64,000 nt of DNA, from NCBI GenBank assembly GCA_951406725.2, contig OX597832.1, positions 42,284,001 to 42,348,000 on the forward strand, written 5' to 3'. Origin of the DNA: Octopus vulgaris (taxonomy: Eukaryota). Shown here piece by piece: positions 4,096 through 62,805 of this stretch; position 1 is the stretch's first letter, and every line of letters begins with the position of its first letter. The position numbers and the translations under genes were made by a program. Under the pieces are notes generated by a model. It was not told where the DNA came from, did not search any database, and saw only the letters and a program-made list of their open reading frames with translations.

Positions 4096-6693
4096 CTTTA
4101 AATTAGCGATCAGTTTATCGAATTGCATTATGTCATGTCTAGAAATCGAAGCACGCGCCTCTCCTTAAAAGACTGAAATTATAGACAAGCTGTAGCTAGC
4201 TGGAGATCGAGTAAATCTTCCATGAAGCAGCGTGAAGCTAGTTTTGCCGGTTATCACGTGAGAGACGTTTCGATCTGCTGTTGGAGAGACACCAGCTGTA
4301 GAGAAACAGCCATTGCATCTATAAAGAGAAATATCACCCAATGCTTCTTCCATCAGCCTTTAAATCATTCTAAAGCACTGACATAAAAATGCCGGTTTAA
4401 TGACTACAAAATTTGACATTTGTAAACGAGTGACTATTAAGATTATGATGTTTCATTCAGTATAACTGAAAAAAAAAACCGGTAATATCATTTAGGGATT
4501 AGGGTGTTTGCTAGAACTATAAGGGAAGGAAAAAAAAATCATCAATATTATATTGCAAAACTCAATGTTACTTTATTAGTGAAGTTGGTGGAACAGTTAT
4601 GAACAAGTTAAGTTAATTTTCCTCTATAATGAAACTGAACTCGTGTTTCAGAATTAAAAAGCAAGATATATTATTAAAATTAAGGTGATATTGCAGATTC
4701 ATCATGGCTGCACGATTGATAAAATAATTTATAGCAATCTGCTGTAACTGAACATCTAATATTCAGTATATAAAAGAATCGAAACGGCAGAATCAAGGTT
4801 TCCAGTAGCAATGCCTTGCGAGGAGGGACAGTTTTTGCTTCAGATTAACTAGAAAACGACCATGTTCATTAACATTGAGAAAAAAAAAAAAAAAAAAAAA
4901 AAGGACTTGTGTGATAATTGAACATCTGATTTGATAAAAAATTGTATATTTAAAAGTGACATTTTTTTTTCCATGACTAAAAATGATTAGTGGTGAGTGA
5001 CAACATTTTTGATGATAAGTGCCAAAAATTGTGACATGTGTCAAACTGCCAAGATGATACCGGTTGTCTAAATAGTATTTATACGCAAACATATTGTCAC
5101 TAATATCCATTCAGTAGCATGGTTTAAGAATTAAAATCCGTACAATATGGAACCTCGCACAAACATTTTCGATGCTTTTATTAATATATCTGAAATAAAT
5201 GAAGCATTTAATTCTGGAATATTCAAAAATCGTTAAAGAAAAAAAAATCATTCTTCAGATCTCAACAGCTGTCTACTCACTCACTCATTGTTCCTACCCA
5301 CCCCCCTATGTTATTTCCTGTTTACACCCAGACCTCCCGACAGGTTTAATCAGCATAATTACAAGTAAGCATTTCCTCAGAGTTGGTTTTGCTTCGCTGC
5401 TCAAAAATTACCGTTTGTTATATCTCACACGAAGAGAAATATGCCTGAAATTTGATGGAGCAGATCAACGATCTTCCAACCGTGGCCATTCCATCCGCAT
5501 ATTTCCATGACTACATTATTCAATGTGTCACCGTTTTTTTAAAAAATAATATAGTAAGCCCGTGAGAGATCTGGTTGTTATTTCTAGCAGATTAAACGAT
5601 CAGATAAAGGAAGTGGCATATGTCCATAAAATCTTATCCCACTATCCAGACATCCAATTCTATCACATGTCATCCATAATATATACCACAGCCTGCCGCT
5701 AATTCAGCATCCATTGATCGCATGACAGTCACATGCCACAATACGACAGTCCACATGAAGTATTTAATTAAATTCAACCATATGTTCGTTGACATTCAAT
5801 TTCATTGAAATAAATTACAGTTTTTTTTATTGTTGGGAGTGGGGAAAATTGTCAATGGCATTTCTTGCTCCTTTCATACTCCACACTCACACTTTCTCAC
5901 ACGCACAAGAAAATCAACGGCTCCAGCAGGAATTTGAAAGGTCTCAGAAAAGCGCCGAGAACTCAACGCTATTTCCCCAACATCCAGTATTGCAATTATA
6001 AGATGTAACAGGGAAGAGGAGAGATAATACAAAGTATCACTTTTATTAAATCTGGGCGAAGTGACAAGAAAAGACATTGGATGGTATTTGAACTCGGAAA
6101 TTAGAGCCTTCTAAGTACCTAGTTTGGTAGTTCAGATCACCACAGCTCGAACGGCAGTTTCTTATACAATCGACAGTAGCCCCAGAAATTACTGGATGGA
6201 ACAAGGTCCACAGCAGTTATTGTCAGTATTACAGATGTTCAAAAAATAATATTCTCTTCACCCTAAAAATTGGGGGATATATTGGATATTGTATTCTTGT
6301 AACAGAATACAATTAATGGATGGATGAAGAATGGGGGGGGGGGGCAAATTAGACTAGAAACATTCAGTGGATTGAACAATAGGCAGGAAAATAAGACCAC
6401 GAAGGAGTTCCAACAAAAGAGACTTTTGGCAAGCATCAGCTCGGCTGGATTGAAAGAAAAACAAGAAGGGGACGGTATGAGAGAAAAAGGGGACAGACAA
6501 TATTAAAACATTAATAACTGTTCACGGGAAAGAGCAGGAAGGGGTTTCAATAAGAGAGAGAGAGAGAACACCGAGGTTTCTGCAGCAATCACTGGGAGGA
6601 AATATTTTGGGAGCTGTCGGCTTACAGACTAAATTGATCCCTATGAAACAGCCCTACCAAATGTTAGTGTGCTGTATGGCATTGGGGTTTACC

Positions 6694-15890: not shown

Positions 15891-16107
15891 TACTCTCTTT
15901 ACTCTTTTACTCGTTTCAGTCATTTGACTGCGGCCATGCTGGAGCACCGCCTTTTTTTAGTCGAGCAAATCGACCCCCCGGGACTTATTCTTTGTAAGCC
16001 TAGTACTTATTCTATCGGTTCTCTTTTGCCGAACCGCTAAGTTACAGGGACGTAAACATACCAGCATCGGTTGTTAAGCGATGTTGGGGGACAAGCACAG
16101 ACACACA

Positions 16108-16152
<45 letters not shown>

Positions 16153-16312
16153 TCACATATACGACGGGCTTCTTTCAGTTTCTGTCTACCAATTCCACCC
16201 ACAAGGCTTTGGTCGGCCCGAGGCTATAGTAGAAGACACTTGTCGAAGGTGCCACGTAGTGGGACTGAACCCGGAACCATGTGGTTGGTAAGCAAGCTAC
16301 TTACCACACAGC
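15891..16312 (-). mobile_element. SINE-A, near full length
   Basis: Colinear with the other copies. Confidence 0.92.
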
Positions 16313-20918: not shown

Positions 20919-21160
20919 TTTCTTTTGCTTGTTTCAGTCATTTTGACTGCGGCCATGCTGGAGCACCGCCTTTAGTCGAGAAAATCGACCCCAGGACTTA
21001 TTCTGTGTAAGCCTGGTACTTATTCTATCGGTCTTTTGCTGAACCGCTAAATTACGGGGACGTAAACACACCAGTTTCGTTTGTCAAGCGATGTTGGGGT
21101 AGACGCACACACAAACATGTACACACACACACACACACACACACATACACACATGTATAA

Positions 21161-21347
21161 AGTTAATCCAAACATGAAAACACAAAGAGAAAACACAACA
21201 ACGCGAGGAATAAGTATAGTATTATTGAACGCTCAAGAAATGAAAGAAAGAAGGAGGATTTAACGTTTCGAGTGGTGCTCTTCGTCAGAAACATAGGAAA
21301 AGGAAAGTTCAAAGGAGGTGAAGACGAAGGAAAAAAATAGCCAACGA
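21161..21347 (-). mobile_element. E1 short PLE-terminus-like element
   Basis: Homologous to 41213-41420 and 44232-44447. Confidence 0.8.
21258..21292 (-). ncRNA. Minimal type-I hammerhead ribozyme motif, canonical core
   Basis: GTTT-CTGACGA-A-GAG cacca CTC-GAAA-CG-TT-AAAT. Confidence 0.7.
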
Positions 21348-21599
21348 TAATATATATATATATACGACGGGCTTCTTTCAGTGTATCTAAATCAACCACA
21401 AGGCTTTGGTGGGCCCGAGGCTATAGTAGAGGACACTTGCCCAAGATACCACGCAGTGGGACTGAACCCGGAACCATGTGGCTGGTAAGCAAGCTACTTA
21501 CCACACACCCACGTTTGCAAAAATTCTTCGTAAAAGCAAAGAAGTTCTTGTGGGTATATGTTATACGAGCGGGCACTAGTGTTGCGATGTCATCCTTTT

Positions 21600-23845: not shown

Positions 23846-24257
23846 TGTAAATTTAGAGAGCGGCTCACATGATGCACACGAGTGTGTCGCTACAGAATTT
23901 GATATGTTCGTACTATATGTGTCCAATTTATGACTCAGGCAGCGGCCTTTCGTCGCGGCGATCGCAGCATTATGCACGTCTGTGACAATGAAATCCCAAC
24001 GTTTCTATAGCTTCCTCGCTCGTCAGGACACACGGATGGTGTTGTCTAGACAGGAGCAGTCGCGACTTCCTGTCCTTCAGTACGGCTGTGCCATCCGTTT
24101 AGAGTGATGTCAATGGAGTGTTGCTTGTTACACTGGGAGATTTTTCGTTATCCTAAAGGTCAATGACAAGGTGACACTAGATTTTTAAGAAGAGGGGCCC
24201 AAAAGTTAATCGTACTTGATAGGAAGTTGACAGCCATCACGCGCGTGTGTGTACGTT

Positions 24258-24430
24258 TCTTTACTCTTTTACTTGTTTCAGTCACTTGACTGCAGCCATG
24301 CTGGAGCATCGCCCTTTTTAGTCGAGCAAATCGACCCCAGGACTTATTCTTTGTAAGCCCAGTACTTATTCTATCGGTCTCTTTTGCCGAACTGCTAAGT
24401 TACGGGGACGTAAGCATACCAGCACCGGTA
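24258..24430 (-). mobile_element. SINE-A 3' half
   Basis: Colinear with consensus. Confidence 0.88.
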
Positions 24431-25074: not shown

Positions 25075-25490
25075 CTCTTTTACTCCTTTTACTTGTTTCA
25101 GTCATGTGACTGTGGCCATGCTGGAGCACCGCCTTTGGTCGAGCAAACTGACCCCAGGACTTATTCTTTGTAAGCTTAGTACTTATTCTATCGGTCTCTT
25201 TTGCCGAACCGCTAAGTTACGGGGACGTAAACACACCAGCATAAGTTGTCAAGCGATGTTGGGAGGGACAAACACAGACACAAACATATACACACACATA
25301 CACATATATATACATACACATATATACGACGGGCTTCTTTCAGTTTCCGTCTACCAAATCCACTCACAAGGCTTTGGTCGGCCCGAGGCTATAGTAGAAG
25401 ACACTTGCCCAAGGTGCCACGCAGTGGGACTGACACCGGAACCATGTGGTTGGTAAGCAAGCTACTTACCACACAGCCACTCCTACACCT
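25075..25490 (-). mobile_element. SINE-A full length
   Basis: Colinear with consensus. Confidence 0.93.
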
Positions 25491-32332: not shown

Positions 32333-32738
32333 TACTCTTTTACATTTTTACTTGTTTCAGTCATTTGACTGCGGCCATGCTGGAGCACCGCCTTTAGTCG
32401 AGCAAATCGACCCCGGGACTTATTCTTTTGTAAGCCCAGTACTTATTCGATCGGTCTCTTTTTGCCGAACCGCTAAGTAACGGGGACATAAACACACCAG
32501 CATCGGTTGTCAAGCAATGCTAGGGGGACAAACACAGACACACAAACACACACACGCACATATAGATCTATATACATATATACGACGGGCTTCTTTCAGT
32601 TTCCGTCTACCAAATCCACTCACAAGGCTTTGGTCGGCCCGAGGCTATAGTAGAAGACACTTACCCAAGGTGCCACGCAGTGGGACTGAACCCGGAACCA
32701 TGTGGTTGGGTGCAAGCTACTTACCACACAGCCACTCC

Positions 32739-32814: not shown

Positions 32815-33066
32815 ATACAAAATGGGACAAGAACGCAAAACATTCAAATAGACGACACAAAAAACGGACGGATCATTCGAAGCCTCTAATCTTCAGTCAA
32901 GAGACCATGGGTTTGCACCTAGAGAGTTACCCTCTGAGGCACAAGTCTGGGCAAGGTTGTTTTTATGGGATCCGATCCAGCAGCCCCAAGGAAAACTAAG
33001 CTACGAGCATTAGATTTCTTGGAAACGGATCGAATGTATACGAAACAAGGACAGAAAAACGGACGA
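32815..33066 (-). mobile_element. Family F microsatellite-flanked element
   Basis: Reverse complement of 41640-41890 and 62520-62805; unrelated segment at ~32903-32970. Confidence 0.7.
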
Positions 33067-33074
33067 TATATACA

Positions 33075-40384: not shown

Positions 40385-40404
40385 GTAAATATATATAGAT
40401 ATAC

Positions 40405-40595
40405 AAACATTGTACAAAAAATTAAAAAAACAAGCAGCAAAAAAAAACAGACAACAAACAAGGTATATTAATTTGACGCTTAGTAAAATGGAAGAAGTTT
40501 TTGACGTTTCGAGCCTACGCTCTTCTACACAAAGGAGCGAGAAGAAACAAACGGAGGGAGAGAGGGGGGAAAACGAAGTGAAAACAGAAAACGTG

Positions 40596-40598
<3 letters not shown>
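40405..40598 (-). mobile_element. E2 short PLE-terminus-like element with a hammerhead-like motif at 40499-40533
   Basis: TTT-GTGTAGA-A-GAGC gtag GCTC-GAAA-CG-TC-AAA; related to 51175-51400; flanked by (TA)n and (CA)n. Confidence 0.65.
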
Positions 40599-40630
<32 letters not shown>

Positions 40631-41212: not shown

Positions 41213-41418
41213 AAAGTTAATCCAAACATGAAAACACAAAGAGAAAACACAGCAACGCGAGGACGTGGAACAAATATAGTATTATTGGACGCTGAGGAAG
41301 GAAGGGAAGAAGGAGTGTTTAACGTTTCGAGTGGAGCTCTTCGTCGGAAACATAGGAAAAGGAAAGATCCAGAGAAGGGAAGACAGAGGGAAAAAAATCG
41401 CAAACGGTACACACACGG

Positions 41419-41483: not shown

Positions 41484-41514
41484 CACACATATATATATGT
41501 ATATATGCTACTAA

Positions 41515-41620
41515 TATAGGAGGAAGTTTTTTTACAGAAAAAAATTTCATCAAAAAAGTGGCAGCATATTAAAATACCTTTAAAGGTTAAAATTATAAAC
41601 AACTTATAAACAATTTATTT
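41515..41620. mobile_element. Family H short TA-adjacent repeat
   Basis: atacctttaaaggttaaa core recurs inverted at ~53460-53570. Confidence 0.6.
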
Positions 41621-41639
41621 TTATTCTATTCTATTCGTG

Positions 41640-41890
41640 TAACATTGTCCGTTTTTTCCCCGTCCTTGTTTTTGTATACATTCAATGCTTTTTTCTAAGG
41701 AATCTAATACTCTTAGCTTAGTTTTTTCCTTGGGGCTGGCCAGATTGGAGCAATCTCAAAAGTATAATCAGCCGAAATTGTGAAGATAATCTGGTACTTG
41801 ACTGAGGAAAGAAAACTTCGAATGACCCGTCCTTGTTTTCTTTGTATCATCTATCTGGATGTTTTGCGTTCTTGTCCCATTTTGTGTTTA
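41640..41890 (+). mobile_element. Family F element
   Basis: Three copies in the window. Confidence 0.75.
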
Positions 41891-44181: not shown

Positions 44182-44231
<50 letters not shown>

Positions 44232-44233
<2 letters not shown>

Positions 44234-44444
44234 TTTCAAAATGTGACCTCGTGTGTACCGTTGACGATTTTTTTCCCTCTGTCTTCCCTTCTCTGGATCT
44301 TTCCTTCTCCTATGTTTCCGACGAAGAGCTCCGCTCGAAACGTTAAACCCTCCTTCTTTCCTTCTTTCCTGAGCGTCCAATAATAGTATATTTGTTCTAC
44401 GTCCTCGCGTTGTTGTGTTTTTTTTGTGCTTTCTAGTTTGGATT

Positions 44445-44447
<3 letters not shown>
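44232..44447 (+). mobile_element. E1 element in (TA)n
   Basis: Opposite orientation to the other two copies; (TA)n on both sides. Confidence 0.8.
44314..44348 (+). ncRNA. Minimal type-I hammerhead motif, U4C core variant
   Basis: GTTT-CCGACGA-A-GAGC tcc GCTC-GAAA-CG-TT-AAAC; stems I and II perfectly paired. Confidence 0.65.
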
Positions 44448-44531
<84 letters not shown>

Positions 44532-51075: not shown

Positions 51076-51400
<325 letters not shown>

Positions 51401-53399: not shown

Positions 53400-53648
53400 A
53401 ATATACATATTGACAATTTGTCTATTTTCGGCATATTTGGCATTATAATTTTTTTCTTTTGCCCTTATTTTATAAGTTATTTATAAATTTAACCTTTAAA
53501 GGTATTTTTTAATAAATATGCTGGCCGTTTATAAAATTTTTTTCGAAAAAGTTCATCCTATATTCCTATATTATATATATATATAGATATGTTTATATTT
53601 ATATGCATATATATATACATATATGAATATATACACATATGTATGCAT

Positions 53649-61932: not shown

Positions 61933-62519
61933 AGTATGTATTTATTAGATATAAGTTTACATGCACACATTTATAAATGCATTTAGCCTCGCGATTTAAA
62001 AAAAAAATGAGCACACTATCAGTGTGTGTGTGTGTGTCTGTGTGCGAAGAATGTGTGTGTGTGTATGTGAGTTTTTGTGTGTGAATGAAAGAATTTGTAT
62101 AGATACAAAGCAACTCACACACATTCATAATCATATCTTTAAGTTGTATATGTATGTGTATGTATGTATTTGTGTGCATGTATATATATATATATATAAT
62201 ATATATATAATAGGTTAAAAATTAATGAGTGGGTGCGTTACATAAACAATATTTTCAGTATTAAATAAAATAAGACAAAAACGGAAAATATGACATCCCT
62301 GTACCTCTACCTCTCTCTCTTCTCTCTCCACGTGACCAGTGTTCGGCTATGCCTGACCTTTCTTTCTTGGTTCGACTACCATCCGTGCAACATCTAAATT
62401 CCTCCATGTGCCTGTCAAATCTCGTATCCCTGCCGTAAGGCTTTACTTCCACACACACCAGCTTAATCTAATTCGTCTTTAGTCGAAAGACACCCGTTGT
62501 TAATGTCCCGTTATTTGTA

Positions 62520-62805
62520 TTTGTGTACCATTTCTCCGCTTTTTTCCGTCCCTGTTTTCGTATACATTCGCTGCTTTCTTCCAAGGAATCTGGTGCTCTT
62601 AGCTTAGCTTTTCCTTGGGACTGGCCAGATCGTGGCAATTTCGAATATAACCAGCCGAAATTGCAAAGATAATCTGGAAGTCGACTGAGGAAAGAAAACT
62701 CCGAATGACCAGTCCTTGTTTTTTTGTATCATGTGTCTGGATGTTTTGTGGACCCTTTTTTGTATCACCTAACTATGTGGATGTTTTGCGTTCTTGTCTC
62801 ATTTA
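62520..62805 (+). mobile_element. Family F element, probably extending 5' to ~62220
   Basis: Colinear with 41640-41890. Confidence 0.75.

Follow-up and report, generated by a model that had tools for sequence, protein, structure and literature searches.

A high-copy microsatellite repeat with a minimal hammerhead motif and a C4 core that marks subfamilies in two animal families

The window analysed here, a stretch of 64,000 nucleotides of microsatellite-rich animal DNA that is presumably octopus-like by its repeats, holds copies of an element of about 200 bp that lie within (TA)/(CA) tracts and carry the parts of a minimal hammerhead ribozyme, and in two of the copies the U at position 4 of the core is replaced by C. 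This raises the question of what kind of element is present at this locus and of how such a core could have been amplified. Our best explanation, to which we assign a probability of roughly 0.7, is that of a high-copy, 200-bp repeat of TA microsatellites with a minimal hammerhead motif, likely a Neptune-type pLTR (the terminal repeat of a Penelope-like element, PLE) that stands alone and would be pasted by the enzymes of that PLE from RNA that has probably remained uncut. In one in vitro study, the hammerhead of a PLE was dispensable for insertion (PMC11167929). Sister subfamilies that differ at a near-invariant core letter and are both widespread, in two distant animals, provide a direct test of cleavage rate against copy success.

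Copies, targets and abundance of the element

The features of the window to which the following refers are:

44232-44447, plus strand: copy 3, with a C4 core and a length of 216 bp, flanked by (TA)n on both sides
44189-44231, no strand: (TA)n tract, the target, 5' of copy 3
44448-44510, no strand: (TA)n tract, the target, 3' of copy 3
44314-44348, plus strand: minimal type I hammerhead of copy 3, numbered after PMC4209133
41213-41420, minus strand: copy 2, C4 core, hammerhead at 41317-41351
21159-21349, minus strand: copy 1, U4 core, hammerhead at 21258-21292, inserted within the microsatellite of another repeat
about 40395-40600 (ends approximate), minus strand: older copy of a sister subfamily with A6U (core UGUAGA), loop II GUAG, C3 lost and triplet GUC
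51176 to about 51400 (5' end approximate), minus strand: second, older copy of the sister subfamily with A6U and loop GUAG, G12 and G16.2 lost

Copies 1 to 3 had been placed in (TA)/(CA) tracts by a preliminary description of the window. They are homologous and present at the positions given, with pairwise identities of 82-91% and blastn E-values among them of 1e-49 to 1e-79; for copy 1 the place and strand were right, and the ends were found at 21159-21349 instead of 21161-21347. The two sister copies turned up in a relaxed scan combined with blastn within the window. Both have kept stem II and the extra A discussed below, have GUAG instead as loop II, and share A6U. This A6U/GUAG sister subfamily represents a second amplified core variant of the same lineage.

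The 3' ends of copies 1 to 3 agree to 3 nt and are located 103, 106 and 106 nt past the predicted cut (about 103 and 96 nt in the sister copies), while the 5' ends vary across 25 nt. A fixed 3' end downstream of the hammerhead together with a variable 5' end, the pattern by which a pLTR is recognised, is therefore seen in the window copies. The narrow range of lengths (190-216 bp) suggests that the copies derive from a short transcript of their own rather than from random truncation, a point which three copies cannot settle.

That the element targets microsatellites had been proposed before and is borne out by copy 1, whose 190 bp are cleanly inserted into the microsatellite within another abundant repeat, and by the (TA)n found beyond the 3' end in four of four runs. 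Copy 1 is absent from all five aligned copies of its host repeat, which indicates that the element inserts into pre-existing tracts. The host is a SINE-like repeat, about 350 bp long and very abundant, located at 20960-21530 and in at least ten further places (among them 25123-25480, 15941-16310 and 32382-32735), whose internal (CA)/(TA) tract the hammerhead element uses as a target. Another dispersed repeat, located at 41500-41750, 62515-62630, 53469-53564 and 32981-33067, flanks copy 2.

The family was found at high copy number in six of seven sequencing runs. With copy 3 as reference, 19,140 contigs were obtained from the DNA run X1, 354 from X7 and 225 from X8; with copy 1, the numbers were 4,153 (X1), 5,248 (X5, organism C), 1,983 (X10, organism D) and 1,660 (X14), the runs on copy 1 spanning three organism labels. 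X7, X8 and X14 are contig sets, and that they represent RNA is a guess. Summed contig depth, which is not a copy count and varies with the reference chosen, brackets about 3,000 to 100,000 copies; the density in the window is 47 elements per Mb (95% range 10-137). The raw reads of run X22, which bears the same species label as X1, yielded 3 on 44232-44447 in 1,934 million letters as opposed to about 160,000 expected from the density in the window, a shortfall that may be due to a filter or to a mismatched label. In X7 and X8, depth falls at the predicted cut; this was discounted, as depth follows the seeding by the reference, and X14 parallels the DNA runs on copy 1.

In X1, position 44424 is joined back to 44244 in a single contig of depth 63, a rare head-to-tail form. 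This joint of the 3' part to the 5' part favours the view that the element is a non-LTR retrozyme, i.e., that tandem source arrays are cleaved into monomers, which form circles and are then copied back, so that cleavage of the dimer would be essential and the present copies would be dispersed monomers. The unit of about 200 nt also falls within the retrozyme range as given in PMC7229834 and bioRxiv 10.64898/2026.07.22.740005, and internal priming on a circle would likewise leave the motif intact in the middle of each copy. However, all five window copies are single instead of forming the tandem units that define retrozymes, and the joint is the only one listed among the 19,140 contigs of X1. 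Moreover, the retrozymes described have canonical hammerheads with a longer helix I and loop contacts, whereas stem I here comprises 4 bp. We regard a retrozyme as improbable.

The hammerhead motif and its C4 core

Stem I of copy 3 is formed by 44314-44317 pairing with 44345-44348 and is followed by C3 (44318) and C4 (44319). An unpaired extra A (44325) precedes stem II (44326-44329 with 44333-44336 around a 3-nt loop), GAAA occupies 44337-44340, the palindrome 44340-44343, and the cut is predicted to occur after U17 at 44344. All parts of the motif that had been described beforehand are present, namely stem I GTTT/AAAC (AAAT in copy 1), stem II, GAAA, ACGT and the GUU triplet, as are the cores CCGACGA in copies 2 and 3 and CTGACGA in copy 1. 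The unpaired A between A9 and G10.1, which is typical of PLEs, was missing from that list. This extra nucleotide and the G10.1-C11.1 pair occur in all five window copies, and the palindrome ACGU replaces helix III in four of them, being lost in the decayed copy at 51299. The exact core of copy 1, the U4C of copies 2 and 3, the type I order, the palindrome and the extra nucleotide agree with the earlier identification of a minimal PLE-type hammerhead; U at position 4, absent from copies 2 and 3, is restricted to the U4 subfamily. The stem II of the family reads GAGC-UCC-GCUC, where copies 1 and 2 have a minor A at a site with G at 85-94% of depth, and AAAT, with G-U for G-C, also occurs in run contigs beyond copy 1.

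A descriptor of the minimal hammerhead matched exactly three sites in the window, namely copies 1 to 3, and block-wise dinucleotide shuffles of the window gave no match in 99 of 100 cases and a single match in the other. This argues against a SINE-like repeat that is mobilised by some other LINE and resembles a hammerhead by chance, a reading which would, in addition, have to accommodate the retention of stem II and GAAACGU across subfamilies despite the replacement of loop II, and the identical core behind PLE endonuclease genes in the second family described below. That reading draws on the result that copy 1 had no Rfam match at E-values up to 10 (in the scan of the whole window, no hammerhead was among the 150 of 530 matches listed, which were only microsatellite artefacts), and on the finding that, within the window family, the motif is not kept significantly better than its flanks (p 0.056-0.47 over six pairs). 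We consider it highly improbable. The preliminary description had made its proposal depend on core and stems being conserved or covarying relative to the flanks, and this was borne out only by half: within the window family the motif is not kept significantly better than its surroundings, and no two-sided pair change in helices I and II was observed among the five window copies, in which 90% of the cells pair. Between families, whose common descent is not established, stem I differs and yet pairs, with GUUU/AAAC in the window element, GCU/AGC in the second family and GUCC/GGAC at locus L070.

At position 17, the variation in X1 is between U, C and A (22% and 10%), with G below 3%; with copy 1 as reference, G reached 4.8% in one subset. 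G12A accounts for 11-15% in X1 and for 0.3-3% in five other runs. CpG decay amounts to 0.5-15% at core sites and 1-10% at flank sites; the core CpGs thus decay like the flanks, indicating that single copies decay without visible selection. Nearest-neighbour folding, which leaves out tertiary contacts and help by proteins, places the active dimer 15-19 kcal/mol above inactive dimers and predicts an inactive rod for the monomer. A stabilisation of inactive folds by C4 was considered and rejected, as changing base 4 alone keeps the gap between the active and the best dimer at 17.4 kcal/mol.

Two further sites of the window resemble parts of a hammerhead. On the minus strand at 23860-24260, with the core at 24026, CTGACGA is followed by GAAACGTT with poor stems, in a stretch without a second copy in the window; possibly, this is a decayed hammerhead of an unrelated element. 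At 4250-4310, also on the minus strand and as a single window copy, GAAACGTC follows a hairpin, without a good CUGANGA.

It had been suggested that U4C was amplified and did not arise by decay, and the depth data agree: C4 makes up about 55-86% of depth in three runs, as compared to 1-10% for CpG decay. At 44319 its share is 66% in X1, 78% in X7 and 86% in X8, the value for X1 falling to 55% when the U4 depth is taken from the copy-1 reference. Site 44307 near the core has a minor share in X1 equal to that of position 4 (35% and 34%). With copy 1 as reference, neither C4 nor the 44307 marker was listed at 3% in any of four runs, which fits linked markers that defeat seeding; this U4 reference is accordingly unable to measure C4 in organisms C and D. 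An origin of C4 from a CpG was rejected, as decay would run the opposite way, from C4 to U4, and C4 is far more frequent than the products of decay.

The same core in a second animal family

To search beyond the window, a pattern was used that comprised the core starting at G5, together with stem II and GAAACGT, and left positions 3, 4 and 17 and stem I free. It matched at least 120 metagenome loci (about 160 stretches by estimate) and two loci in genome contigs; a strict pattern had no match in metagenome contigs, and a looser one had none in viral contigs. Most of the 122 listed loci belong to a single animal family which, by eye, matches the row for Acropora digitifera Neptune in the PMC4209133 supplement, a row whose core and stem II are nearly identical to those of the window element. 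We infer a coral host from this resemblance. Among the 122 listed loci, positions 3-4 read CT in 55 and CC in 51 cases, and position 17 is C in 113, T in six, A in three and G in none. Merging repeats of one locus left 102 loci, and removal of three residual duplicates, the bacterial chance match L122 and three rows of other families left 95, of which 45 have C4, 49 U4 and one G.

A tree was calculated from 66 nt 3' of the cut, excluding position 4, for 73 rows (22 of the 95 were omitted because their 3' flank match was too short). It places 38 C4 loci and one U4 locus on one side of a branch with values of 100/97, based on few columns and a bootstrap that had not settled, and requires two changes at position 4, compared to 24.5 after shuffling. 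Judged by this tree, C4 in the second family is one clade. A GIY-YIG domain is located just upstream at the C4 locus L121 (PF01541, E 6.5e-5) and at the U4 locus L077 (E 1.8e-3), both of which have a CX4CX2C linker in the Neptune layout (motif according to PMC8557442). The 3' ends of the family cluster about 66 and 117 nt past the cut, corresponding to the PLE tail, and an inverted second motif occurs in 19 of the 102 listed loci. In 16 of these 102, the inverted hammerhead begins within about 35 nt 5' of the first, so that the point of inversion is sharply placed beside the ribozyme; these loci include L001, L010, L019, L034, L053, L071 and L075. Two loci may be mentioned separately: at L121:2180-3286 (minus strand), an animal Neptune-type PLE end resides on a bacterial MAG contig, likely as host contamination, and L070:793-816 (minus strand) represents a third family, in which core and stem II are unchanged, the loop has 3 nt and stem I is GUCC/GGAC.

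Nothing but the motif of 28-31 nt, most of which is fixed by the search pattern, is common to the window element and the second family, and similarity of their flanks was no better than that of shuffles (117 and 461 of 500). Thus, the second family is an analogue of the window element and perhaps a distant relative. As the U4 and C4 forms of a family both have the stem I peculiar to it, the change from U4 to C4 most likely arose twice. C4 is a trait of a whole subfamily both in the window family and in the second, distant animal family. This amplification in two families probably means that elements of the PLE type can spread without fast cutting at the predicted site.

Relation to Penelope-like elements and known systems

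With respect to the earlier proposal of a PLE terminus, motif, 3' end and targets fit, but no PLE gene is tied to the window element. No reverse transcriptase or GIY-YIG domain was found in the window, and no protein family reached the curated cut-off in a Pfam scan of the 300 most complex of its 562 frames of at least 55 aa; similarly, no upstream body shared at the loose ends of the element was seen among the rows listed (X1, X7 and X8, and the runs on copy 1). The motif, in turn, matches the published PLE consensus letter for letter, including the extra nucleotide and the pyrimidine-rich 5' flank (PMC4209133), and points to a PLE origin of the window element. Of the optional features of pLTRs, neither a tail of 30-40 nt nor a tandem or inverted partner was seen with the five window copies; in the second family, where the motif stands as the terminal repeat of a PLE frame, tail and inverted partners are present.

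Taking the copies, their (TA)n targets, a 3' end that hardly varies and lies some 100 nt beyond the predicted cut, the variable 5' ends and the amplification of C4 as what is observed, the following mechanism might be proposed. A PLE endonuclease would nick the (TA)n target, and the reverse transcriptase would begin at an internal site of the RNA, some 100 nt 3' of the ribozyme, read through the ribozyme and end 90-115 nt 5' of it. Stem III would form only in a dimer, via ACGU, which a lone copy would be unable to do; the ribozyme would be slow, and C4 would slow it further or stop the cutting. As a cut would sever the template, cutting would not be needed for copying, and a C4 master could therefore found a large subfamily. 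Copies that end 96-106 nt past the cut and have the motif intact in their middle are expected from such internal priming on uncut RNA.

Whether C4 leaves slow or protein-aided cutting, or none, stands at about even odds. A variant of this explanation, departing from it only by denying residual cutting, holds that the C4 copies are dead ribozymes whose master lost catalysis and spread on an RNA shape or sequence recognised by a PLE protein. It is in line with a deep scan in which every single mutation in the CUGA turn left little activity (PMC9901934), with in vitro insertion that was unaffected by hammerhead mutants (PMC11167929), and with the A6U of both sister copies, the frequent G12A in X1 and the inactive folds predicted. 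On the other hand, U4C was active enough for the infectivity of a viroid, as stated in PMC3088659; the same change, and no other core letter, marks large subfamilies in two lineages; and the frequent changes at position 17 are mostly among U, C and A, apart from the one subset with G noted above. We regard dead ribozymes as a serious possibility with somewhat less than even chances. More tentatively, and rather unlikely in our view, CCGA might be a convergently fixed, throttled core of Neptune-type PLEs with separate origins in a cephalopod-like and a coral-type lineage, which cuts slowly or with the aid of proteins and is favoured because it spares the template. If so, the sister subfamilies with U4 and C4 would constitute natural paired experiments on the purpose of PLE hammerheads.

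Small hammerheads with a short stem III that cleave as dimers were reportedly tied to PLEs by Lunse, Weinberg and Breaker in 2017. Minimal type I hammerheads were described in the pLTRs of metazoan PLEs by Cervera and de la Pena in 2014 (PMC4209133). The window element shares with these the palindrome as the only substitute for helix III, the extra nucleotide after A9, the G10.1-C11.1 pair, the short helix I and the occurrence mostly as single dispersed copies. The published minimal hammerheads are slow, have a helix II of 7-8 bp compared to 4 bp here, and include no cephalopod among their rows; C4 occurs in none of the 56 rows of Fig. S3, whose descriptor required U, whereas it marks a large subfamily of the window family (PMC4209133). 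For PAc, a Poseidon PLE of Anolis that inserts at AT-rich targets, Frangieh et al. 2024 (PMC11167929) place the internal start of reverse transcription 85-92 nt past the hammerhead cut; in vitro, mutation of the ribozyme left insertion normal, most of the substrate was uncut RNA, and cutting required protein. The window element similarly has its 3' end about 90-100 nt past the cut, AT-rich targets and an intact ribozyme within genomic copies. Unlike PAc, it has no linked protein gene, and its 3' end region is U-rich rather than AC-rich; it likely belongs to another clade.

Microsatellite targets with a bias for (TA)n are shared with the Neptune and Naiad PLEs (Craig et al. 2021, PMC8557442), of which Neptune carries canonical hammerheads and Naiads do not. 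Of the features of Neptune, the microsatellite bias is present in the window element and the CX2-5CxxC linker only in the second family; four short words of the window element were absent from the octopus Naiad entries of PMC8557442, with one chance match elsewhere. Like animal non-LTR retrozymes (PMC7229834; bioRxiv 10.64898/2026.07.22.740005), the element is a short non-coding hammerhead unit related to pLTRs and occurs as solo monomers; unlike these, which are defined by tandem units, its window copies are solitary. Literature searches on hammerheads of animals or PLEs in which C4 is fixed, and on octopus hammerheads of any kind, gave only the natural viroid variant U4C, which has lower activity in vitro that suffices in vivo (Perreault et al. 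2011, PMC3088659), and the accessible parts of PMC6155905, PMC3376415, PMC6765202 and PMC13282606 added nothing on C4. The C4 variant or the element family may already be contained in Lunse et al. 2017, in the supplements of bioRxiv 10.64898/2026.07.22.740005 or in the octopus repeat library. The viroid U4C is rare and affects a ribozyme that has tertiary contacts, whereas C4 in the window family is a fixed trait of a retroelement subfamily. In some families, about half of the members escape searches that allow only CUGA. The element itself is an ordinary member of a kind described since 2014, and what is new here is a C4 core that is fixed in two animal lineages.
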